64,000 nucleotides of DNA from an uncultured Gammaproteobacteria bacterium. GTDB lineage: Bacteria; Patescibacteriota; Microgenomatia; Woykebacterales; RBG-16-39-9b. Under the pieces are notes generated by a model, which saw only the letters and a list, made by a program, of their open reading frames with translations, was not told the DNA's origin and did not search any database. The stretch lies in contig OZ246414.1 of assembly GCA_965231125.1 (NCBI GenBank), positions 512,137-576,136 of the forward strand. Reading direction: 5' to 3'. Positions 1,152 through 59,330 of this stretch are shown here, piece by piece. Position numbers and translations under genes: made by a program. Position 1 is the stretch's first letter, and the number at the start of each line of letters is the position of its first letter.

Positions 1152-2617
1152 GGGAGTACGAAACAACAATTGGTTTGGAAGTGCATGTTCAACTAAAAAC
1201 AAAGTCCAAAATGTTCTGTACAGGTATTGCCGAATATTTCGGAGAAGAGCCAAACTCACACACTTGTCCCGTTTGCCTCGGGCTTCCGGGGGCTCTCCCC
1301 GTAATAAATCAAAAGGCAATAGAATCTGCAATCAAGGTTGGTTTGGCCTTAAATTGCCAAGTAAATAAAGAAACAAAATTTGATAGGAAAAATTATTTTT
1401 ACCCGGATTTACCTAAAGGTTATCAGATTTCTCAGTACGATTTACCAGTCTCGAGGCAGGGTCACATATTGGTCGAGGGGAAAAAAATCAGAATCAACCG
1501 GGCTCATATGGAAGAAGATACCGGAAAGTTAATCCACACAAAAGTGGCTGGGAAAATGGTCAGTTTAATAGATTTTAATCGCTCGGGAGTCCCTTTGCTG
1601 GAAATTGTCTCAGAGCCGGATATTTCTTCTCCGGAAGGGGCCCGCAGTTACGCCAAGAAGCTGCACCAAACCATGCGTTACTTGGAAGTGGCCGATGTTG
1701 ATATGGAAAAAGCCGGCATGAGATTTGATGCCAACGTTTCTCTTCGAGCCAAGGGGGATAAGGAGCTGGGAACTAAAGTTGAAATAAAAAATATAAACTC
1801 ATTTAGATTTTTAGCTAAGGCTCTGGAGTTTGAAATCGTCCGCCAAGCGAAGAAATTGGACGCCGGAGAAAAAATTATTCAGGAGACTCGCGGTTGGGTG
1901 GAAGGCAAAGGTGAGACAGTCTCCCAACGAACAAAAGAGACCTCCCCAGACTACCGGTATTTTCCAGAACCAGACCTTCCGCCCCTCTCTATAAGCGCGG
2001 AACTGGTTGATAATCTAAAAAAACAAATGCCGGAACTTCCGGACGAAAAGTTAGAACGTTTTCAGAAGGATTACGCTTTAGGGGCTTATGATAGTCGTTT
2101 GTTGACCGAAGACAAAAATCTTGCCGATTGGTATGAAGAGGCAGTTTTGGACTATACCAGATTGGGACAAAATAAAAAGGAGCCTACCAATATCGATTTC
2201 CAAAAAACAAAAAAAGTTGCTAACTGGGTTTTGGGGGAATTGGCCAGGCTTTTAAATGATAAAGGGCAAAGTATAAAAGAGGCAAAAATAGAACCCGCCG
2301 CACTTGTGCAGTTACTTCTCTTAGTAGACGGCGAAAAGATTACCCGAGAGACAGCCAAACAAGTGTTTGCTAAGATGTTTCAAGAAGGAAAACTGCCTGC
2401 TAAAATAATAGAGGAGGAGGCCTTAGGACAGATGACGGAAGAAGAATTGGAAGGGGTAGTAGTTAGCGTAATAGAGGAAAATGAAAAGGCATCTACCGAC
2501 TACAAAGCCGGTAAAAAAGAATCGTTAAAATTTTTGGTTGGACAGGCGATGAAAAAAACTAAGGGCAAGGGGGGTCCGCAAATTATAACTAGGGTTCTCC
2601 AAGAAAAACTTTTATGA
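1148..2617 (+). CDS. gatB: Aspartyl/glutamyl-tRNA amidotransferase subunit B
   Basis: N-terminus MREYETTIGLEVHVQLKT...CPVCLGLPGALP and C-terminal YqeY-like tail. Length 489 aa. Confidence 0.9.
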   Translation: MREYETTIGLEVHVQLKTKSKMFCTGIAEYFGEEPNSHTCPVCLGLPGALPVINQKAIESAIKVGLALNCQVNKETKFDRKNYFYPDLPKGYQISQYDLPVSRQGHILVEGKKIRINRAHMEEDTGKLIHTKVAGKMVSLIDFNRSGVPLLEIVSEPDISSPEGARSYAKKLHQTMRYLEVADVDMEKAGMRFDANVSLRAKGDKELGTKVEIKNINSFRFLAKALEFEIVRQAKKLDAGEKIIQETRGWVEGKGETVSQRTKETSPDYRYFPEPDLPPLSISAELVDNLKKQMPELPDEKLERFQKDYALGAYDSRLLTEDKNLADWYEEAVLDYTRLGQNKKEPTNIDFQKTKKVANWVLGELARLLNDKGQSIKEAKIEPAALVQLLLLVDGEKITRETAKQVFAKMFQEGKLPAKIIEEEALGQMTEEELEGVVVSVIEENEKASTDYKAGKKESLKFLVGQAMKKTKGKGGPQIITRVLQEKLL

Positions 2618-4416
2618 ATGCCGAAGTAGGCACAGAAGTAAAATACGATTTAATCACAACTGCCGACGGTCTCGTAAAAATAATTGATGATTTGGAAAAA
2701 TCGCCCATTATTGGTTTGGACACTGAAGGTACGAAATTTGATCCGTTCACCGCGAAATTACTACTTTTACAAATATCTACGAAAAATAATATTTACGTTA
2801 TCGATAATGGTAAAGTAGATATCTCCCCAATAAAACACATTTTGGAGTCGGAAAGACCACTAAAAATCGCTCAAAACGCCAAGTTTGACTATTCGTTGTT
2901 AAAAGCCCAGGCGGGAGTAAAGCTAGGGGCGGTTTTTGATACTATGCTTGCCGAAAGAATTCTGACGATGGGGGTCTCTCGGGAAATATCTCTAAAGACG
3001 ATTGCGGAGAAATACCTAGGTGTAAAAATGGATAAGACAATCCGGGAAACTTTTACAGATCCTAGGAATAATACCGGCCAGGTAAACTTCACCAAAGAAC
3101 AGCTTGATTATGCGGCCCGTGACGTTTCAGTTCTTATTCCAATTTTCGAGAAACAGTTCAAAAAACTTCAAGAGGAAGGGTTAATCGAAGTAGCAAAGCT
3201 AGAATTTTTAGTTGTACCGGTTGTTTCAGAAATGGAACTAAGGGGATCGTTAATTGACCAAGTAAAGTGGCGAAAATATATAGCCGAGTTGCGGGAGAAG
3301 AGAGATATAATTAACAAAGAAATACAAGACGATTTGCGCCATTTAAGCCCTTACTCTCAAACAGATCTTTTTGGTAATGAGGTTGATACAATAAATCTCG
3401 ACTCGCCTTTACAACTTCTCACCGCTTTTAAAAAAATGGGGGTTGAGTTGCCCAATACCGCCGAAGCCACTTTACATAAATCCGCTCACCCCTTAGCAAA
3501 AAAACTTTTAGAGTACCGAGCTTACGAGAAAATGATCACTTCTTTTGGGGAGTCTATCCTTGAGAAAATTCACCCTATCACGGGCAGACTACACCCAGAT
3601 TTCATCCAGCTTGGGGCGGATACAGGTAGGTTTGCCTGCAATAATCCAAACTTACAACAAATACCGGCCGACTCCGGTTTCCGGAGTTGTTTTATCGCGA
3701 CTCCTGGTTACAAACTTATAACAGCTGATTATTCTCAAATTGAACTTAGAATAATGGCGGAAGTCAGCGGAGATCCGGCTTTTCTAGAAGCATTCCAAGA
3801 AGATACGGATTTGCACACTTTAACAGCGAGCCAAATGTTTCGAATGCCAATTGAGAAAGTTAATAAAGATAAAAGATTCCAAGCAAAATCAATTAATTTT
3901 GGCTTGATGTATGGTAGAGGGCCAGCTTCTTTAGCCAATCAAATCGGTCTTTCAGTCGAGGAATCGAGAAAGTTACTGGAAGTTTATTTTGCAAAATATA
4001 AAAAAGTAAAGCAGTGGCTAGATAATGTTGGTCGCCAATCAGTTCGCCAAGGGTACATCCGTACATTGAGCGGAAGGAAAAGAATGTTTAATTTACCGGA
4101 TAAAACTGATATGGATTACGAAAAATTGATTGGAGCAGTGGAGAGACAAGGGAAAAATACGCCTATACAAGGCACGAGCGCCGACATTACAAAGTACGCT
4201 TTGGTTTTTATAGAGCGGGAAATTAAAAGTAGGGGGCTGGACGCTTACTTAATTCACACTGTCCACGATGAAATTGTAACCGAGGCCGCCGAAGATACCG
4301 TAGAGGAAGTTGCCAGTTTAGTTGAGGAGCAAATGATTAAAGCGGGCGAAAAACTTTTGAAAAAAGTTCCGGTGAAAGTAGACATTCATATTTCAGAGTG
4401 TTGGGAAAAGGGTTAG
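2614..4416 (+). CDS. polA: DNA polymerase I, Klenow-like (3'-5' exonuclease + polymerase domains; no 5'-3' nuclease domain)
   Basis: Exo motifs GLDTEGT, NAKFDYSLL and YAARDVSVL. Polymerase motifs DYSQIELRIMAEVSGD, KSINFGLMYG and HTVHDEIV. Only 600 aa. Confidence 0.9.
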   Translation: MNAEVGTEVKYDLITTADGLVKIIDDLEKSPIIGLDTEGTKFDPFTAKLLLLQISTKNNIYVIDNGKVDISPIKHILESERPLKIAQNAKFDYSLLKAQAGVKLGAVFDTMLAERILTMGVSREISLKTIAEKYLGVKMDKTIRETFTDPRNNTGQVNFTKEQLDYAARDVSVLIPIFEKQFKKLQEEGLIEVAKLEFLVVPVVSEMELRGSLIDQVKWRKYIAELREKRDIINKEIQDDLRHLSPYSQTDLFGNEVDTINLDSPLQLLTAFKKMGVELPNTAEATLHKSAHPLAKKLLEYRAYEKMITSFGESILEKIHPITGRLHPDFIQLGADTGRFACNNPNLQQIPADSGFRSCFIATPGYKLITADYSQIELRIMAEVSGDPAFLEAFQEDTDLHTLTASQMFRMPIEKVNKDKRFQAKSINFGLMYGRGPASLANQIGLSVEESRKLLEVYFAKYKKVKQWLDNVGRQSVRQGYIRTLSGRKRMFNLPDKTDMDYEKLIGAVERQGKNTPIQGTSADITKYALVFIEREIKSRGLDAYLIHTVHDEIVTEAAEDTVEEVASLVEEQMIKAGEKLLKKVPVKVDIHISECWEKG

Positions 4417-4476
4417 GGAGTCTGGTAGAGGTTTATGATAATTGACCTTAAGTTAGCCTCATAGTATACTTATTGT

Positions 4477-5403
4477 ATGGGCCTACTGCTCGCGAGATGG
4501 ATTTATCCACACTTTCATAATGATCACCATCCTTTTGCAATTCGCCACCAAGCTCTTTTTGGGTTTGTAATTATACTCTCTTTAGTTCAGGTTGTTACTA
4601 ACGCAGTAAGTGGCAATCCCAAAATATTAGGCTACGCAACTAATATATCTTCCGAGGTAATTGTTAATTTAACAAACAACGAAAGGGTGAAGGAAAATGC
4701 CCCCGCGTTGCAGGAAAGTACGCTTCTAGATAGGGCTGCCGCCCTTAAAGCGCAGAACATGTTTGCTAAAGATTATTGGGCCCACTTTGCACCAGATGGC
4801 ACCTCGCCTTGGTATTTTTTCGATAAAGTCGATTATAAATATTCCTGGGCTGGGGAAAATCTCGCTCGGGATTTTCAGACTTCTTCTGGAGTTGTTGCCG
4901 GTTGGATGGCTTCCACCGAAGGGCACCGAGAAAATATTTTAAATCCCAACTTTACTCAGATTGGTGTCGCTGTAGAAAACGGCACGCTTCTGGGGAGTCA
5001 AACTACCCTAGTGGTTCAACTTTTTGGCAGACCAGTAAGTTATTTAGCGTCCGCACCAACCAATACACAGTCGGCTAAGAGTACCTCTGTTAATGATAAT
5101 TTGGTTTTACCGACAGGTAAAGCAAGCCACACTACTATTGGCAAGGAAAAGGCGGTTATCACCTCCTCAGGTTTAAGTGTCGGTTCGGGCTTGAATCTTG
5201 CCGAGTTGGTAAGAAATATGAGCCTTAGCCAAAAAACAAGTTTCTCCCTACTTTTTGTTTTAGGATCACTTTTTGCCCTGGATTCAGTGGCAATTTTTCG
5301 TAAAGAACACACTCGGTCTAACAGCCATTCCGGAATGCACGCAGTAGTAATCTTGGTACTGATGGTAACTCTAATGGCGCAAAGCTTAGGAGTAATTTTA
5401 TGA
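4477..5403 (+). CDS. CAP/SCP (PR-1-like) domain protein with N- and C-terminal TM segments
   Basis: Core YWAHFAPDG...SWAGENLARDF...GHRENILNPNFTQIGVAV is typical of the CAP superfamily. Hydrophobic segments at both ends. Confidence 0.6.
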   Translation: MGLLLARWIYPHFHNDHHPFAIRHQALFGFVIILSLVQVVTNAVSGNPKILGYATNISSEVIVNLTNNERVKENAPALQESTLLDRAAALKAQNMFAKDYWAHFAPDGTSPWYFFDKVDYKYSWAGENLARDFQTSSGVVAGWMASTEGHRENILNPNFTQIGVAVENGTLLGSQTTLVVQLFGRPVSYLASAPTNTQSAKSTSVNDNLVLPTGKASHTTIGKEKAVITSSGLSVGSGLNLAELVRNMSLSQKTSFSLLFVLGSLFALDSVAIFRKEHTRSNSHSGMHAVVILVLMVTLMAQSLGVIL

Positions 5404-5654
5404 AAAAATATCACCTTTCCCATGCATTGCAGTACGCTGTCTTGGCCGTAGTCTTTTTAGTTTCAATACCGACTCTGTTTGTTGTTAGGCAGGAAGGAAC
5501 GCGGATTTTTCTTATTTTTGCCCTGAGTCTGTTCTACTTGGTAGTTGGTATTTGGCATCATCTCGAAGAAAAAAATTTAACGGCCACAACCCTCTTGGAG
5601 TATTTAGCCGTCAGCTTAATAATCTTTGTTGTTCTTTTTTCTGTTTTTCGCTGA
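5400..5654 (+). CDS. Small membrane protein (2 TM), hypothetical
   Basis: ATGA overlap with the upstream CAP gene stop. Two clear hydrophobic helices. No homology recognised. Confidence 0.35.
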
Positions 5655-5704
5655 CAGGTAGTTATTTGACATACAAGAGCCCAAAGTATAAAATAGTTTG
5701 GTTT

Positions 5705-6013
5705 ATGGAAGAGCGTAAAGAAGAAATAAAATTAGAGCCTGGAGACACCGCTCGCATCAGCGTTAGAGTTAAAGAAGCCGGCAAAGAAAGAATTCAAGTT
5801 TTTGAAGGCGCGGTTATATCCGTTCGCGGTAGTGGTGAATCTAAAACTTTTACAGTCAGGAAAATTGGTGCGGCTGGCGTGGGAATAGAGCGAATTTGGC
5901 CCGCCGGCAGTCCAAGTATTCAAAAGATTGAGATAAGAAAAAAATCTCCGGCACGGCGCGCAAAACTGTATTTTCTTCGTTCCCGTAAAGGTAAAGCCGC
6001 TTTGGGTATATGA
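5705..6013 (+). CDS. rplS: 50S ribosomal protein L19
   Basis: [46 protein letters not shown] is the L19 signature. The ORF-track start at 5552 is probably too far upstream; the internal ATG at 5705 fits L19 length. Confidence 0.85.
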
Positions 6014-6630
6014 GGCGTGTTGCCGCCCACTTTCAATACGAAAAAGAGCTTTGGAAAAAGGGAGTAGAGTTTGTCGCTGGTGTCGATGAAGTTGGTCGTG
6101 GTTCCTGGGCCGGGCCAGTTGTGGCAGCCGCCGTTGTCTTCCCCAAAAACATAAACTTCGCAGAAGAACTTTACGATTCAAAGTTGGTTTTACCAAGACA
6201 CCGCGAAAGGCTATCAAGGTTGATTCACCAGTATGCTTTGGCGATCGGTTTGGGAGTGGTTGAAGTGCCGGTGATAAACAAACTCGGTATTGGTAAAGCC
6301 ACCCAGAGGGCATTTCGGAAGGCAATTTTTCAACTCACGAGCGTTCCCAGCTGGATTCTAATTGACGCTTTTTATATAAAACACCTCAAAAAGGACAACC
6401 AGCTGCCAATTAAAAAAGGAGACACAATAGCGGCCTCTATCGCTGCTGCCTCAATAGTCGCCAAAGTTTATCGGGACTCCCTGATGAGAAAGTTGGGAAG
6501 ACTCTACCCAGAATACGGGTTTGGTGTTAACAAAGGCTACGGAACAGCCTTTCACCAAGAGGCTATCAGAAAATACAAGCTTTGCAAAGCTCACAGGCTC
6601 TCCTTTAATTTAAGTTATCTAACCCAATGA
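6010..6630 (+). CDS. rnhB: Ribonuclease HII
   Basis: [22 protein letters not shown] catalytic motif. ATGA overlap with rplS. Confidence 0.85.
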
Positions 6631-6986
6631 CAAAAACTTCCTTAGGTAAAAAAGGTGAAGAAATTGCTGAAAAATTTTTAATTGATCGGGGCTTCAAAAT
6701 ACTTGAAAAAAATTTCCGAGCCCGTTTTGGGGAGATAGATATAATTGCAAACTACAAAGATACTTTGGTTCTTGTCGAAGTCAAGACAAGACATTCTGCA
6801 AATTTTGGTTTACCCGAAGAAGCAGTAACATATCGGAAAATAAAAACGATTGCTAAAGTTGGGGAATACTACCGCGCTTTCAAGGAAAATCTGCCTGATT
6901 CGGAAAGAATTGATGTGGTGGCGGTTGATTTTGACGAAGACGGAAAATTAAAAAGGGTTGAGTTAATTGAAAACGTTACCGGCTAA
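6627..6986 (+). CDS. yraN: YraN/UPF0102 family endonuclease
   Basis: GEEIAEKFLIDRGFKILEKNFRARFGEIDIIA...LVLVEVKTR matches the YraN pattern. Overlaps the rnhB stop. Confidence 0.75.
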   Translation: MTKTSLGKKGEEIAEKFLIDRGFKILEKNFRARFGEIDIIANYKDTLVLVEVKTRHSANFGLPEEAVTYRKIKTIAKVGEYYRAFKENLPDSERIDVVAVDFDEDGKLKRVELIENVTG

Positions 6987-7456
6987 TTATGATTCGAGTT
7001 TTCAATACTAGTTTCTTGGTCGACCTCATATGTCGTATCCGTACGAGAATTTGAGTGCAAATTGACCTCAAATTTTCCGTCACCACTCATTGGTAAAGTA
7101 ATACTTAAATTCCCATCTTTTAGTTCTTTCTTAAAATCTATTGGGGGTTGTGGTTCGGGCGTTATGTTCACTGATGCATCTGATCCTTCCTCTGAAGATT
7201 TTATTGAAATACTAATTCTTGACGTGCCGGCTGGGTCTGGTGTTTTTGGGGTTTCAGGTGTTTGAGGTGTACTAGGGGTTGCTTGGTTGGGTGGTTGTGG
7301 ATTGCTCGATTCATCTGTATTTGGGGTGGTAGTATTCTCGGCTAAAGATTGATTTGACTGGAAAAAAGCTAGGGCTCCGACAAGTGCTACCCCGAGTATA
7401 ACTGCTCTATATTTAAATACTCTGGAAAAGACTATCAACCTCATTAAAAAGACCAT
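6983..7456 (-). CDS. Membrane-anchored secreted protein with Pro/Thr-rich linker, hypothetical
   Basis: N-terminal hydrophobic anchor, then a PNTDESSNPQPPNQATPSTPQTPETPKTPDP stalk and a small C-terminal domain. Confidence 0.45.
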   Translation of the reverse strand: MVFLMRLIVFSRVFKYRAVILGVALVGALAFFQSNQSLAENTTTPNTDESSNPQPPNQATPSTPQTPETPKTPDPAGTSRISISIKSSEEGSDASVNITPEPQPPIDFKKELKDGNLSITLPMSGDGKFEVNLHSNSRTDTTYEVDQETSIENSNHN

Positions 7457-7559
7457 ATCACTGCGGCGGTAAAAGTGTCAAGAGGTAAAATTGGCTACTG
7501 TCTAAATTCAAACTACAAGCAATATTTACAAGCCAAACCCCCTCTGCTATACTCGCCGC

Positions 7560-10210: not shown

Positions 10211-11092
10211 ATGAAAGACATCGAGTCGAAGATAAATAATTTGATTAAATCTACCAACCGAACTTGGGGTGTTTATGCAGAGGATATAGACACAGGTAAA
10301 AAGTTTGTACTCAACGAAAACAGAGTTTTTGAAACAGCAAGTACTATAAAGCTTTTCATTCTATTTGCGTTGTTTCAGAAAGTAAAGCTAGAAAAAGTTA
10401 ACTTAAAGACGCTTGTTAATGTCAAAAAAGAACATATCGGCGTGGTCGGTAGAAGTAGCGGTATCTTGCAGTATTTTAAACATTCGCATCCCTTGTCTTT
10501 ATACAATATTGCCCTGCTCATGATAATCATGAGTGATAATCCGGCAACTAATGTTTTGATAGATTATTTGGGTAAGGACTACATTAACGATTATATTTCC
10601 AAAGACTTGCAGTTAGAAAAAACTAAGCTTTTGACAGGCAAAGTAGATTTTCCAAAAAATTTTAGAGTTGAAAACACAAAAATGGGCACGACAACTCCTT
10701 ATGAAATTGCAACAACGCTAAAGAAATTAGAAGAAAACAAACTATTTGATAAAAAGACTTCAAAAAAAATAATCGAGATTCTTTCAAATCAGTTCTTTTC
10801 TAATGATATTCCGAGATACTTACCTACATGGATAAATGTAGGGATTAAAAGGTACAAAATAAGGAAGATCGCTAATAAAACCGGCTCAATTACCTACGAA
10901 GATGATAATTACTTCACGACAAGAAGCGATGCAGCTCTAATATACACTAAAAATAATCGCCGCTTTGTAATAGTTATCTATCATGAGGGGCCGAGCGATT
11001 ATAACCACTTATACACACCAGACAATAAGTACAGAATAATCGGAAGCAGAATTAGTAAAGCTTTATTCGACTATTTTTTTAAGAACGCTTAG
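10211..11092 (+). CDS. Class A beta-lactamase-like serine hydrolase (SxxK, SDN, KTG motifs)
   Basis: ASTIKLFI (SxxK), MSDNPATN (SDN) and ANKTGS (KTG), with spacing typical of class A beta-lactamases/PBP-like proteins. Very low GC (~33%). Confidence 0.65.
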   Translation: MKDIESKINNLIKSTNRTWGVYAEDIDTGKKFVLNENRVFETASTIKLFILFALFQKVKLEKVNLKTLVNVKKEHIGVVGRSSGILQYFKHSHPLSLYNIALLMIIMSDNPATNVLIDYLGKDYINDYISKDLQLEKTKLLTGKVDFPKNFRVENTKMGTTTPYEIATTLKKLEENKLFDKKTSKKIIEILSNQFFSNDIPRYLPTWINVGIKRYKIRKIANKTGSITYEDDNYFTTRSDAALIYTKNNRRFVIVIYHEGPSDYNHLYTPDNKYRIIGSRISKALFDYFFKNA

Positions 11093-14031: not shown

Positions 14032-16878
14032 ATGTCTCAGTCAACAAGTTTTTTAGATTCTGTTAAAAAACCTCTTACAAAATTTAGTAAATCTAGTTTT
14101 CTACGCTCTCGGAGAATCTGGGCCCTTGTAGGCTTAATAGGTTTAATTATAGTTTTTTGGGCGTTGCCAACTTATGCTGCTGCCGCACCTGGGCAAATTG
14201 GTTATCCAATAAAACGTGCTGAAGAAGCAGTTGTAGTCGCTTTGGCACCAACAAGTGGTTTACGTGATAGCCTAAAACTAGATTTTGCGGTTCGTAGGGT
14301 CCGAGAAGCAGCCTATATAGCTAACCAAGCAGATCAAGCCGGAACGGAATCGACTATCGGTTATCTACTTAACCACGGTCTAGCTAACTACGTTTATGCT
14401 GCTACTAACTCTAGTCAAGATGAGGCGAAAACGGCTGCTACAATTAATGACCTACTCCTACAATTCGAATCAACCTACAAAAATAATACCGAACAATTAG
14501 ACCAAACTGTTGATCAAGATAAAAAGATTTCTCAAACAGATGCTGAGAAATTTAGAAAAAATACTGTTGATATTTACACCAGATTAGAACTTCTGCGCTT
14601 GCAGGCACCAAGCGCAGCGCAACTGTCTGTACTCACGAGTATTGATACTATCCAACAAAACTTGGCTGTCGTAAATGATTTGTTGGGTAAAGCGCCAATT
14701 TCCGTTAGTGATGTTTCGCAGCTTACTAAACTTGTTCCAGCTGGACTTCTTTCTAAAACTGACGTGGATAGTCTACTAAACAAAGTCAGCAGTAATCGAG
14801 AGTTCCACACCAAACTTAAAGATTTAGTTAATACAGGTAAACTACCCTCAGATATACTATATAGTCTCGACCAAGATGTTATTAAGCAGGTAAATCCATC
14901 ACAAGCCAACGTTTTTGAAGCAGTATCCGAATTTGAGCAAATGGAGCGTATCAGCGCAGTGATTCAAGCTAGCCGACCAACTGCTGCCCAACAGCAGGAT
15001 ATCCAAAATTATTTAGCCACTTACAAGCCGGGTCGGCAAATACCAAAAAATGATAGCAAACGATTTGTAGTACCGATTGTCTATGGTATGACACTCGCCG
15101 GCCAACTACAAACAGATATTTCTAGCCTTGATAATGTTCACCTTAATAGTGATGACCAAGCACTTTTCGACAAATGGAAGGGTAGCTTAACCGCCAACCA
15201 ACAAAATCTTAGTCAGCTTTACCAACAATTAATGACCGGTGCGTCTCTTCAGCCGGAGTTGCACACTCGAGCTCTAATACGTATGCAGTCTGAACTGGTT
15301 GACGGCGAAAAAGAGGACGTGACTCATTTGGTACTACCACCCGGATGGAATGCCGATCAACTCGGTCCCTTAAGCAACCAAATGGCAGTCGAGATTGCCG
15401 AGGCGAGATTTATCCAATCTAGTCCAAAAGAGCAAGAATCACAAATTACTCTTACTCAGAAAGAATTGCAGAAGAGCCTGGAAACCGTCAAAGAATCTCA
15501 GAGCAAGACCTTAACTACTTTGAAAACTCGTATTAACAATTTTTCAGGTACGCCAGAAGAACTTACTAAGCTAAAAGAAAGCTTTACTCTCTTAACTGCC
15601 GACCAAACCAATACCCTCACTACCTTGAAGTCTCAAATCGATGGGTTAGGCACGGCCCATTTACAACTAACTGGTTCCATAGAAACTGTTGCTAAAGAGC
15701 AGCTTATCGCTTTAACCGAACTAGAACTAAGAGCAGCTAGTAATGCCACACAACTGACAACGTCTGTAAAAACTGATCTTTCAGCTAAACTAGTTAAGCT
15801 TGAGCAAACCAATCAGCAGTTGGTCAATGCTTTTCAAACTAAAATTGATAGTCTAGACACTACCCAAACCGATTTGCAAACACAATTAACCAACTCTATT
15901 GAAACGATTCAAAACAATCAAACAGACATCGAGACACGTTTGCAAGCTCAGATTGATTCAGGTTTAGCAGCTGCTGGGCAACTGCAGACTACTCTGAGTA
16001 GTGTACAAACTAGTATTACTGGGCAAGCCAGTCAACTCTCAACCCTCGGGACTAGTACTACTGCGCTAACTACACTTGTCAATCAAGTCAAAACTACTTC
16101 GACAGAGCAATCCACGCAGCTACAGAGTCAAATTGATGGTTTAAAAATTGAACAACAGAGTGTCCGAGACTCGATTGAAACTTTGAGAACCCAACAGACA
16201 GCTGAACTGAACCAATTAACAGGACAGTTAACAACTCTGAATGCTCTACAAACCGAAACCCAAGTAACTCTTGAAACACTTGCTACGCAACAAACGAACC
16301 TCGCCTCTGATATAATCAATCTATCAAATAACTTTACACAAGTGCAATCGCTTCTGTATGATGTCGAGGAATCCCAAACTGCGGTTCAAGCTGATATTAC
16401 GAACCAACAGTCAGAGCTTACTAGTTTAAGCACGCAAACCCAAGCAGCTTTGAGCGACTTGAGCGGGCAACTCTCTCAATTTACTTCCCAGCTTGGCAGT
16501 TTGACTGCAACGGCGACAACTTTATCCCAGGTAGTAACGAGCATAGAACAAGCCAGCAGCGCAACCCAGAGCGAACTCGACACCTTAATAGCCAACCCAC
16601 CTTGGTCGATCATACCGGAAGGTACTTACGTTACTGCCTCCCAGTTCGATACTTTAAAAACTGAAATTGATAGTCAATTTGCCCAAAAATCAGCCGAGCT
16701 CGATCAAGAATTTCAGGCATATCAGCAGCTGCTCCACGCCGAGGTGCAGCAGCTCGGTCAAACAACTAGCAGCCAAAATACTACTTTGCAGCAAGAAGTT
16801 AACGAACTACGTCAACAATTGGAAACTTTGCAAACCCAGGTCGAACAATTGACTCCGCCAACTACTCCTGGTTTATAA
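14032..16878 (+). CDS. Large (948 aa) membrane-anchored coiled-coil/low-complexity surface protein, hypothetical
   Basis: N-terminal TM (residues ~27-49). Then ~900 aa rich in Q/T/S/L with heptad-like repeats (QLTTSVKTDLSAKLVKLEQTNQQLVNAFQTKIDSLDTTQTDLQTQL...). Confidence 0.6.
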   Translation: MSQSTSFLDSVKKPLTKFSKSSFLRSRRIWALVGLIGLIIVFWALPTYAAAAPGQIGYPIKRAEEAVVVALAPTSGLRDSLKLDFAVRRVREAAYIANQADQAGTESTIGYLLNHGLANYVYAATNSSQDEAKTAATINDLLLQFESTYKNNTEQLDQTVDQDKKISQTDAEKFRKNTVDIYTRLELLRLQAPSAAQLSVLTSIDTIQQNLAVVNDLLGKAPISVSDVSQLTKLVPAGLLSKTDVDSLLNKVSSNREFHTKLKDLVNTGKLPSDILYSLDQDVIKQVNPSQANVFEAVSEFEQMERISAVIQASRPTAAQQQDIQNYLATYKPGRQIPKNDSKRFVVPIVYGMTLAGQLQTDISSLDNVHLNSDDQALFDKWKGSLTANQQNLSQLYQQLMTGASLQPELHTRALIRMQSELVDGEKEDVTHLVLPPGWNADQLGPLSNQMAVEIAEARFIQSSPKEQESQITLTQKELQKSLETVKESQSKTLTTLKTRINNFSGTPEELTKLKESFTLLTADQTNTLTTLKSQIDGLGTAHLQLTGSIETVAKEQLIALTELELRAASNATQLTTSVKTDLSAKLVKLEQTNQQLVNAFQTKIDSLDTTQTDLQTQLTNSIETIQNNQTDIETRLQAQIDSGLAAAGQLQTTLSSVQTSITGQASQLSTLGTSTTALTTLVNQVKTTSTEQSTQLQSQIDGLKIEQQSVRDSIETLRTQQTAELNQLTGQLTTLNALQTETQVTLETLATQQTNLASDIINLSNNFTQVQSLLYDVEESQTAVQADITNQQSELTSLSTQTQAALSDLSGQLSQFTSQLGSLTATATTLSQVVTSIEQASSATQSELDTLIANPPWSIIPEGTYVTASQFDTLKTEIDSQFAQKSAELDQEFQAYQQLLHAEVQQLGQTTSSQNTTLQQEVNELRQQLETLQTQVEQLTPPTTPGL

Positions 16879-57541: not shown

Positions 57542-57655
57542 GTCGAGCCCTTTAATTTATTTGGAATTTTAATGACACCTCATCGAAATACAAATTTAGT
57601 TGGTTACTTTGAAATTTAGGTTCACTTTTGGTATAATCACTTTGAACATCAATGT

Positions 57656-57731
57656 GCCCCAGTAGCTCAGCGGATAGAGCAGGACGGTTCTAACGTCAAG
57701 GTCGGGGGTTCGAATCCCTCCTGGGGTACCA
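57656..57731 (+). tRNA. tRNA-Arg (anticodon UCU)
   Basis: GCCCCAGUAGCUCAGCGGAUAGAGCAGGACGGUUCUAACGUCAAGGUCGGGGGUUCGAAUCCCUCCUGGGGUACCA. Cloverleaf with anticodon loop GUUCUAA. Confidence 0.85.
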
Positions 57732-57737
57732 TTTTGT

Positions 57738-57813
57738 GGGCCAGTAGCTCAATTGGCAGAGCAATTGCCTCTTAAGCAATCGGTTGAAGGTTCGAGTCCT
57801 TCCTGGCTCACCA
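57738..57813 (+). tRNA. tRNA-Lys (anticodon CUU)
   Basis: GGGCCAGUAGCUCAAUUGGCAGAGCAAUUGCCUCUUAAGCAAUCGGUUGAAGGUUCGAGUCCUUCCUGGCUCACCA. Perfect anticodon stem, loop CUCUUAA. Confidence 0.85.
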
Positions 57814-57819
57814 AGAATT
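57803..57819 (+). repeat. 17-nt direct repeat copy 1 (tRNA-Lys 3' end + 6 nt): CTGGCTCACCAAGAATT
   Basis: Exact match to copy 2 at 58245-58261. Confidence 0.8.
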
Positions 57820-57891
57820 TGTATTTCTTGGCAAAAAAAGACACCTATTTCAAGGTCGCATTAGTTTTATTCAAACAATAAACTAATGGCT

Positions 57892-58032
57892 TTAGCCTCC
57901 TATTTTAAACATCTTTGTTCCACAAACTGGGCAAGTACCTTTCAAGGCTTTTCTACCATTTTTCATGGTAACTTGCTCAGGATTTGTAACTTCTCTTTTC
58001 TGTTTACACTTTACACAATATGCTTCTGACAT
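57892..58032 (-). CDS. Small zinc-ribbon protein (46 aa; CxxC...CxxC)
   Basis: MSEAYCVKCKQKREVTNPEQVTMKNGRKALKGTCPVCGTKMFKIGG. Strong SD GGAGGTG 9 nt upstream. Lies between the two direct repeats. Not in the ORF track. Confidence 0.45.
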   Translation of the reverse strand: MSEAYCVKCKQKREVTNPEQVTMKNGRKALKGTCPVCGTKMFKIGG

Positions 58033-58244
58033 ATTTTTACTAGCACCTCCTTCCAAATTTAGTTTTTTGTTACTTATTCTATTATCTTCAATCTTTGTTC
58101 CTGTGTCAAACCTAAGTTATATTGTAAGTACCCAGTCACCTCAAAGTCAAATACGCTACTTCCTTGTAAACTAATTCGGGATACTGTATTTTTTTAAACT
58201 GAATCGACAAAATTAGATACAAATTCATTCGAATAACGTACTCT

Positions 58245-58261
58245 CTGGCTCACCAAGAATT
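58245..58261 (+). repeat. 17-nt direct repeat copy 2: CTGGCTCACCAAGAATT (att-like duplicate of tRNA-Lys 3' end)
   Basis: Exact 17/17 identity with the tRNA-Lys 3' terminus. Chance expectation is negligible. Confidence 0.8.
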
Positions 58262-58284
58262 ACTCCATGGTATAATTCCTCTCA

Positions 58285-58821
58285 ATGAAAAAACATTTCC
58301 GAAACATTGTTATTTGTGGGGATATTGGTACTGGTACCACCACGCTTGGTAAAGGTTTAGCCGTCAAACTTGGTTGGAAATTTTTATCTATCGGGGATAT
58401 TTTCCGATCCTACCACAAAGAACATAATATTCCTCTTTGGGACAAGGCGGCCATACCAGAGGCGCTTGAAAGGGAAGTAGACGCAAGCTTCATGGATAGA
58501 GTGACCAACGAAAAACACATCATTTTTGATGGGCACTACCTAGCCTGGCTAGCCCGGAATTTAGACGATGTTTACCGTATCCTTTTAATTTGTGATAAAG
58601 AAGTGGCAACGAAGAGAATTTTGAAACGCCAGCACACTCATAAAGAAACTTTAAAGGAAATTGAAGAAAGAAGAAAGCAACTTCGGGAGAAATTTAAAAA
58701 AATTTATTCAAAAGCAAATTACGAAAACCCGAAGCTTTTCCACCTTGTTCTCAATACAACCGATTCGACCCCCGAAGAAACTTTGAAAGCAGTGTTAGCT
58801 GCATTTAAAAAGAGTTGGTAG
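58285..58821 (+). CDS. Cytidylate kinase-like protein, archaeal/short type, with non-canonical Walker A (GDIGTGTTT, no Lys)
   Basis: NIVICGDIGTGTTTLGKGLAVKLGWKFLSIGDIFR...ILLICDKEVATKRILKR...IYSKANYENPKLFHLVLNTTDSTPEE collinear with ~180-aa Cmk family 2 proteins. Confidence 0.55.
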   Translation: MKKHFRNIVICGDIGTGTTTLGKGLAVKLGWKFLSIGDIFRSYHKEHNIPLWDKAAIPEALEREVDASFMDRVTNEKHIIFDGHYLAWLARNLDDVYRILLICDKEVATKRILKRQHTHKETLKEIEERRKQLREKFKKIYSKANYENPKLFHLVLNTTDSTPEETLKAVLAAFKKSW

Positions 58822-58997: not shown

Positions 58998-59127
58998 CTC
59001 TCACCTCCTAGTTTTGGATCCTTAGAAAAACGGAACCCGGACCGTTGGTGTCTTTTTAGATAATGAAGACAGTTGCAAACCGACGAGTTTGCAACGGGCG
59101 TAGTTATCGCAAGGATACTGCCTATCA

Positions 59128-59208
59128 CTTCAAAAAAGGAACGAGTAGCAGCGCGACTATATTAATCACTTTTATCATCGGGTTTATTGGATTTTCGAGA
59201 TCTTCGAA
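59128..59208 (-). pseudogene. Duplicated, synonymous-diverged 3' coding fragment of hppA (encodes ...[22 protein letters not shown])
   Basis: Compare the true hppA C-terminus ...[21 protein letters not shown]. About 75% nt identity with amino acids conserved. Bounded upstream by an in-frame TAG. Confidence 0.5.
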
Positions 59209-59330
59209 CTACCGTTCTCTGGCTCGAAAAGTCCTGCGTTCGAGCAATAACTAACGTTATTGTTCTCGAACTATGCAGGCCCAGCAGTGTCCTTTAGTAC
59301 CGATTTTATCGGGACGCAAAGACACAGCAA

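Follow-up and report, generated by a model that had tools for sequence, protein, structure and literature searches.

Cis-mobilizable elements (CIMEs), and the tandem accretion of such elements at attachment (att) sites in gene 3′ ends, were defined for the islands related to ICESt1 of Streptococcus thermophilus, according to PMC5704250 (citing Pavlovic et al. 2004). The tandem islands of Dehalococcoides sit at ssrA, the gene for transfer-messenger RNA (tmRNA), according to PMC3146451. Here we describe a locus of this general kind in the window, by which we mean the whole 64-kb stretch of contig OZ246414.1 that was analysed: the 3′ end of a tRNA-Lys(CTT) gene is directly repeated downstream, and the two copies enclose a small gene of the DUF5679 zinc-ribbon family. 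We propose that the enclosed segment and its borders are probably an att scar or a decayed mini-element of CIME-like type, and that recombination has also taken place at this site. In the Dehalococcoides study, the successive small islands of a streamlined genome were reportedly marked by repeated fragments from the 3′ end of the target, and those islands are said to be associated with identifiable integrases. Integrative mobile elements exploiting Xer recombination (IMEX) integrate at dif, at the replication terminus. The host of the present locus is a Woykebacteria-like bacterium of a candidate phylum, and, as far as we know, there are few good descriptions of mobile elements and recombination hot spots from bacteria of the candidate phyla radiation; nor are we aware of any account of conjugative elements in Patescibacteria.

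The repeat, CTGGCTCACCAAGAATT, is a 17-mer that occurs in exactly two copies in the window, also when two mismatches are allowed, and the pair is the longest among the window's direct repeats spaced at 2 kb or less. Matches were found in 0 of 100 shuffled sequences, and the chance expectation is none. The copies start 442 bp apart, leaving 425 bp between them, and with their flanks they agree at 21 of 24 bases. Both boundaries of the segment carry the tRNA 3′-end repeat with 17 of 17 bases identical, 11 of them belonging to the tRNA and including its CCA. A preliminary description of this DNA had reported such a repeat, with a small zinc-ribbon gene between the copies and no integrase, and each of these points is borne out: the repeat is exact and unique in the window, DUF5679 is the sole convincing gene in the 425 bp, and none of the 48 window open reading frames (ORFs) scanned with Pfam matches an integrase, resolvase or transposase family (8 of the 48, including one of 948 residues, had no Pfam match at all at the thresholds used). 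An Rfam search returned nothing above threshold except tRNA-Arg(TCT) and tRNA-Lys(CTT). A tRNA-Lys(CTT) gene of identical sequence is present at loci L034, L019, L045 and L049.

Near-identical or identical contigs of the same species come from SRR6155504 and JGI 3300010391, and the arrangement is the same in both samples. The nearest other organisms are metagenome-assembled genomes (MAGs) of Candidatus Woykebacteria, and they are distant, the best homologue of the kinase encoded next to copy 2 being 63% identical. Four roughly equidistant lineages were compared: that of the window and those of L040 (the same as L020 and L026; GCA_040876345), L034 (the same as L028-L033) and L051 (the same as L017; GCA_022574495). 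These comparisons revealed a conserved arm in front of the repeat core, laid out as ACAAATTC...TCGAATAACGT, 5 nt, and the acceptor/CCA core. An arm about 90% identical precedes degenerate cores at the equivalent position in L034 and in L051, where it reads AATTAGATACGAATTTGTTCGAATAACGTAagcgTTGGCTCACCA and lies between unrelated PRK and PIN genes, far from DUF5679. Across all fetched loci, the pattern TCGA(A/G)TAACGT occurs four times, in three lineages: at window copy 2, at the L034 junction, in an L034 fragment and at the internal site of L051. Each occurrence has ACAAATTC before it and is followed, after 5 nt, by a tRNA-Lys-type acceptor/CCA core, and independent insertions share this element-end sequence (ACAAATTC...TCGARTAACGT, 5 nt, core). 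The arm resembles a tRNA T-loop and acceptor strand with an AACGT insertion, as would be expected of attP sequence brought in by a tRNA-targeting element and remaining at attR. Because the same arm stands before tRNA-Lys fragments beside different genes, it fits the element-side end of an attR. The comparisons support copy 2 as a putative att-type site, neither a chance repeat nor a regulatory one.

All four lineages have DUF5679 and tRNA-Lys(CTT) in convergent orientation, and the two genes are directly adjacent only in the window, where the junction runs uninterrupted from CACCA-AGAATTTGTATTTCTTGG into the terminator. In L040, 1.2 kb with an Aminoglyc_resit-family gene is inserted exactly after CCA and is followed by the remnant CACCAtGAATTTGTATTTCTTGG. 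The insertion in L034 is 1.0 kb long, contains ORFs of 140 and 76 residues, and is followed by GTCCTTCCCGTCTCACCA-CGAATTT, in which GTCCTTCCCGTCTCACCA and the tRNA end have 16 of 18 bases in common. L051 carries an insertion of about 5.5 kb in two segments, separated by the arm and an internal TTGGCTCACCA; the first segment holds a 305-residue ORF and inositol monophosphatase, HAD and PRK genes, and the second a PIN/antitoxin pair and a 72-residue ORF. Tandem segments split by an internal core fragment, as expected of tandem accretion, are therefore found in both L034 and L051 (two in each). The cargo proteins of these islets are mutually unrelated by BLASTP, and the precomputed Pfam lists for the related loci and islets contain no recombinase. 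Since tRNA-Lys and DUF5679 are uninterrupted in the window, the window provides the unoccupied junction for the L040, L034 and L051 islets. As judged from sequence comparison, the tRNA-Lys(CTT) 3′ end is the apparent insertion point for differing, small, integrase-less islets among these relatives. The preliminary description had reasoned that an invariant arrangement in related genomes, with the repeat as part of a conserved regulatory element, or a 17-mer present at many other loci would speak against integration; relatives do differ in their arrangement, and the 17-mer is not widespread.

The same tRNA pair has further peculiarities in other genomes. In L048 (SDBV01000984), tRNA-Arg and tRNA-Lys stand 6.3 kb apart (1180-7472), and the ORFs between them, whose translations were judged by eye, include a GTP cyclohydrolase II-like and an FMN reductase-like protein as well as small ORFs, with no recombinase-like ORF seen by eye; the kinase gene is duplicated there, one copy being apparently fused to an N-terminal extension. 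The assembly GCA_040903525 breaks exactly at the tRNA-Arg/tRNA-Lys pair (L031 and L041 are the ends of two contigs), such that one contig ends past the islet beside DUF5679 and the other begins at the tRNAs, with the kinase gene next. The population may be structurally heterogeneous at this point, or the break may be no more than an assembly problem. In L015, a Saccharimonadales MAG, the canonical tRNA-Arg(TCT) is seemingly split, and its 5′ and 3′ fragments (3193-3215 and 3368-3389) flank a complete tRNA-Arg(TCT) of different sequence (3261-3336); it appears as if a foreign tRNA took over from the resident one.

A large rearrangement between the lineages has its breakpoints at the same cores. 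The block that runs from the kinase gene to a gene for 168 residues is bounded, in the window lineage, by copy 2 at its left and an opposite-strand tRNA-Lys(TTT) gene at its right. In L034 this 9-kb block is inverted: tRNA-Lys(TTT) directly adjoins the kinase gene, and the arm with its degenerate core adjoins the corresponding gene for 169 residues. The breakpoints are the copy-2 site and the tRNA-Lys(TTT) 3′ end, which share the sequence CTCACCA, and the gene order of L034 is the order expected from one crossover between the two inverted cores. An event-by-event reconstruction across the window, L040, L034 and L051 was attempted, and only this 9-kb inversion reduces to one core-core event; the inversion of the tRNA/DUF5679 unit in L040, whose breakpoints have no recognisable core, and the flipped tRNA-Lys(TTT) do not reduce to single events of this type. 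In the outgroups L049, L019 and L015, tRNA-Lys(CTT) adjoins Lon with nothing between, and in other Woykebacteria (L036, L038, L043) the kinase-hppA block lies beside plsY. Together, these adjacencies indicate that the neighbourhood was reshuffled in this subclade.

Based on these comparisons, we propose that copy 2 and its arm probably constitute the attR-type junction of a small integrative element, for which copy 1 would be the matching attL. The element family would insert into the tRNA-Lys(CTT) 3′ end in Woykebacteria-like Patescibacteria, and its attachment site would resemble the 3′ portion of tRNA-Lys, in that the T-loop-like TCGAATAACGT is followed by 5 nt, the acceptor strand and CCA. 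What remains of the element would be the 425 bp with the DUF5679 gene, its own promoter and its terminator, bounded by inverted GAATTTGTAT 10-mers. The recombinase is no longer present, and the segment would therefore be a CIME-like remnant, mobile only with a recombinase supplied in trans. The most likely enzyme is a tyrosine integrase acting in trans, given the tRNA 3′-end target with 11-18 nt of identity. It is further proposed that the same cores recombine the chromosome itself, such that an exchange between copy 2 and the inverted tRNA-Lys(TTT) 3′ end would have produced the 9-kb inversion of L034. The direction and order of these events, and the standing of DUF5679 as cargo or as a captured gene, are what we infer from the comparisons. 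The segment agrees with the definition of a CIME, with attL and attR kept and integration and transfer genes lost, and there is no integrase gene inside it beside either att site.

The termini of the segment also make sense under this proposal. The exact 10-mer GAATTTGTAT has only two copies in 64 kb, which are mutually inverted and lie at the two ends of the repeat-bounded segment. The palindrome at the CCA end of tRNA-Lys is a candidate recombinase-binding site. The role of a third copy of the terminal motif, GAAATACAAATTT, is uncertain; a motif resembling it is also found upstream of tRNA-Arg in L048. We considered a transposon or miniature inverted-repeat transposable element (MITE) and rejected it: the right inverted 10-mer is set 18 nt inward from copy 2, what is duplicated over 17 nt is tRNA sequence, and there is no transposase. 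The coordinates of these features are given in the table below. Reading rightward, with orientation in brackets, the gene order is SBP_bac_5 (plus), a 137-residue ORF (minus), three HTH_17 genes (plus), tRNA-Arg and tRNA-Lys (both plus), DUF5679 (minus) and copy 2; downstream of copy 2 follow the kinase gene (plus), a 48-residue ORF (minus), 3′ fragments of hppA, and hppA (minus).

Features of the repeat-bounded locus (window positions unless stated otherwise)
Feature	Position	Strand	Remarks
Insertion of ~1.5 kb relative to L017, L034 and L049	56162-57541		between SBP_bac_5 gene and tRNA-Arg
GAAATACAAATTT, third copy of terminal motif	57585-57597	+	upstream of tRNA promoter; inverted relative to tRNA-Lys flank
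Promoter-like site of tRNA pair	57609-57637		TTGAAA, 17 nt, TG-TATAAT
tRNA-Arg(TCT)	57656-57731	+	ARAGORN; Rfam 59.9 bits; first gene of tRNA pair
tRNA-Lys(CTT)	57738-57813	+	ARAGORN; Rfam 71.6 bits; putative integration target
Repeat copy 1, attL-like core	57803-57819	+	last 11 nt of tRNA-Lys including CCA, plus 6 nt of 3′ flank, AGAATT
Perfect palindrome, 7-7-7	57811-57831		CCAAGAA-TTTGTAT-TTCTTGG; overlaps CCA end; read from sequence
Left terminal 10-mer GAATTTGTAT	57815-57824		within palindrome
Likely intrinsic terminator of DUF5679 gene	57833-57859	-	hairpin and T7; visual reading, absent from terminator-scan list
DUF5679 zinc-ribbon gene	57892-58032	-	46 residues; Pfam E = 1.5e-20
DUF5679 promoter-like site	58081-58109	-	TTGACA, 17 nt, GATAAT; kept in relatives
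Arm AATTAGATACAAATTCATTCGAATAACGTA	58211-58240	+	30 nt; directly precedes copy 2; includes ATACAAATTC and TCGAATAACGT
Right terminal 10-mer ATACAAATTC	58217-58226	+	inverse of left 10-mer; within arm
T-loop-like TCGAATAACGT	58229-58239	+	within arm
Repeat copy 2, attR-like core	58245-58261	+	also left breakpoint of invertible 9-kb block
Extended -10 of kinase gene, TGGTATAAT	58268-58276		begins 6 nt past copy 2
Cytidylate_kin2/AAA_18 (cytidylate-kinase-like) gene	58285-58821	+	Pfam; first gene of rearranged block
tRNA-Lys(TTT)	L001 18023-18098, just past window		3′ end CTGGCCGCTCACCA-GAATTTT

Whether the 425-bp segment has itself moved is a harder matter. In favour of mobility count its borders, that is, the perfect repeats, the arm and the inverted termini. 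The DUF5679 proteins of the window, L040 (8330-8470) and L034 (10944-11084) are 100% identical and their DNA 96-96.5%, as against 61-74% DNA identity in other genes of the same three lineages; the fraction of differing codons at identical residues is 12-14% for DUF5679 and 55-69% for six neighbouring genes. This low synonymous divergence would be compatible with recent exchange of the segment, and the conservation could come from codon-level constraint or from repeated transfer.

Several findings weigh against our proposal or against a recent arrival. Even DPANN archaea, Chloroflexota and Armatimonadota have DUF5679 family members that are 72-91% identical, the L051 copy likewise has reduced synonymous divergence (26-32%), and constraint may explain part of the low-divergence signal. 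The convergence with tRNA-Lys(CTT) in every lineage compared makes the segment old or ancestral and therefore no recent arrival in this genome. For a site of the age that the comparison with L034 implies, an exact identity of 17 of 17 bases is surprising. In L051, DUF5679 and the kinase gene are immediate neighbours, and no att site separates them. An empty site, in which tRNA-Lys(CTT) would be followed directly by the kinase gene, was not found in the related genomes compared. Scans of viral contigs and the single genome and metagenome scans, all made with exact patterns only, detected no integrase-bearing member of the family: among viral contigs, the 17-mer gave seven chance-like matches, none in a tRNA or att context, and the tRNA 3′ 25-mer, a DUF5679 44-mer and two arm patterns gave none. 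The non-coding similarity of the segment was considered as a sign of horizontal transfer and rejected, since a control interval, the intergenic DNA from hppA to MS1, aligns at about 80% between lineages; being about as alignable as the segment, it shows that such similarity is no evidence of mobility. The idea that DUF5679 and tRNA genes are functionally linked in general was likewise dropped, as a tRNA cluster is adjacent in one Woykebacteria outgroup only; DUF5679 is not beside tRNA genes in outgroup L061, nor in L053 (Chloroflexota by its NCBI name) or L058. The integration scar that the preliminary description had postulated at this tRNA pair is partly supported, by the att-type copy 2, the conserved arm, the insertions in relatives and the inversion; the window itself supplies the unoccupied junction for the L040, L034 and L051 islets, and no empty site of the kind that it had asked for was found for the 425-bp segment.

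It is possible, though on balance unlikely, that no mobile element was involved and that copy 2 is a tRNA-Lys 3′ fragment left behind by inversions or translocations between tRNA-Lys genes, through homologous or microhomology recombination, the islets being ordinary indels in a hot spot. Such a history would suit a region that is rearranged in every lineage compared, in which the orientation of the tRNA pair and of the kinase-to-PPDK block varies, where tRNA-Lys(CTT) stands beside Lon without an insert in the three outgroups, and where one inversion, that of L040, has breakpoints without a core. However, it leaves unexplained the conserved 30-nt arm at four junctions with different neighbours, the inverted terminal 10-mers and three independent insertions that start exactly after CCA; an identity of 7-17 nt is, moreover, short for RecA-dependent exchange. 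A trans-acting recombination system that is still live, swapping tiny cassettes and inverting multi-kilobase blocks at a tRNA-Lys-like site of about 45 bp, is distinctly unlikely in our estimation. If it were true, ultra-small genomes would possess a platform for cassettes to which no integrase is linked, with a one-gene DUF5679 cassette exchanged between lineages and blocks inverted between two tRNA-Lys genes.

The recombinase might instead belong to the host. Integrase-less islets would then use a chromosomal Xer-type enzyme as IMEX do, the site would be the palindrome at the tRNA end, and the 17-nt identity would stop at one boundary between arm and central region. That every islet lacks a recombinase is in keeping with this idea, as is the perfect 7-7-7 palindrome at copy 1, whose central TGTAT presumably resembles the central region of dif. 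Nevertheless, no dif-like 28-mer was identified and GC skew does not switch at the repeat position in the window, the right half of the palindrome is absent from copy 2, and the likeness of the arm to the 3′ half of a tRNA is a typical trait of the attP that a tRNA-targeting integrase uses; we hold the idea to be quite improbable. There is even less to be said for a degraded second tRNA-Lys, arising by tandem duplication and decayed to its 3′ end, a highly improbable origin: the arm does have a T-loop-like TTCGAAT upstream of the acceptor/CCA sequence, but no similarity to a D-arm or anticodon arm is seen further upstream, where ARAGORN and Rfam are silent, the same AACGT-containing arm recurs at other junctions and in other genomes, and 6 nt past the CCA are duplicated too. 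The position of copy 2, 6 nt upstream of the kinase gene's extended -10, would be expected of a cis-regulatory element of that gene, and yet no such sequence occurs upstream of the kinase homologues in L034, L040, L043 and L051; a chance repeat is countered by the expectation of zero matches. Regulation and chance are largely refuted by these comparisons and together retain next to no probability. We thus return to a decayed, CIME-like remnant as our proposal, one that takes up the exact repeat, the arm at four junctions, the differing cargo at one tRNA end and the inversion breakpoints.

Other features of the neighbourhood call for comment. The insertion upstream of tRNA-Arg occupies an interval that measures only about 100 bp in L017, L034 and L049, and contains a minus-strand 137-residue ORF without a family and three tandem plus-strand HTH_17 paralogues, two of which are 61% identical to each other. 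These three had been described as excisionase-like: the HTH_17 domain is indeed above the Pfam cutoff, but the excisionase-family domain TIGR01764 scores just below its cutoff in all three. The insertion may be mobile-element debris. Cargo shared between it and the islets was sought and rejected, BLASTP similarity being confined to the three HTH paralogues. The gene after copy 2, previously called a lysine-less cmk-like gene, does encode a kinase of the Cytidylate_kin2/AAA_18 type, but the lysine-less P-loop is no peculiarity of this locus, being common to the homologues in L020 and L048. Elsewhere in the window, the 948-residue ORF (14032-16878) has no Pfam match at E ≤ 1e-5.

The displaced hppA 3′ end that the preliminary description had noted downstream is present, but it is a separate phenomenon, common to another genome (L036). 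It lies on the minus strand at 59041-59318, downstream of the stop of the intact hppA, and is split in two: KDTAGPA is encoded at 59277-59297 and the second piece at 59128-59190, with a further KDTNGP piece at 59041-59058. The element of about 85 nt between the two pieces folds into two hairpins (z = -3.8). In L036, a distant member of the Woykebacteria, the same layout of KDTAGPA, element and INPM follows its own intact hppA (10690-10790), and the two genomes match at 88% along 91 nt; hairpin 2 contains one compensatory pair. Judging by these sequences, a small element may target and restore the hppA 3′ end.

Importantly, the repeat-bounded locus provides a defined att-like site, natural occupied and unoccupied junctions, and a core-bounded block inversion, which would allow a search for the recombinase in complete genomes and tests of islet mobility. 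Its closest counterparts are the CIMEs, with which, following the definition in PMC5704250, it shares a flanking attL and attR repeating the target's 3′ end, the absence of integration and transfer genes, tandem segments with internal att fragments (in L034 and L051) and unrelated cargo in each islet. It differs from them in that the window segment, with 425 bp and one gene, is much smaller, the host belongs to the Patescibacteria, and exact-pattern scans uncovered no parent integrative and conjugative element (ICE), integrative and mobilizable element (IME) or prophage that carries the same arm. With the islands and prophages of tRNA-targeting tyrosine integrases (P4-like or lambda-like, with an attP that carries a tRNA 3′ segment), our locus has in common the tRNA 3′-end target, repeats of 11-18 nt that include CCA and an element-side arm with a tRNA-like stretch, and tRNA-Lys(TTT) as a secondary partner would explain the inversion; unlike them, it has no integrase beside attL or attR at the loci examined here. 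The islands of Dehalococcoides are at ssrA (PMC3146451), whereas the window-type islets are at tRNA-Lys. IMEX, which rely on the host XerCD, are likewise small integrated elements that lack their own recombinase and are flanked by repeated recombination sites; here, in contrast, the site is a tRNA end, there is neither a dif-like structure nor a skew switch, and the palindrome at copy 1 is the sole candidate. Seen beside these systems, the locus is an ordinary scar of a known kind, the tRNA-linked att repeat of a decayed element, and what sets it apart is its host lineage and its very small size.

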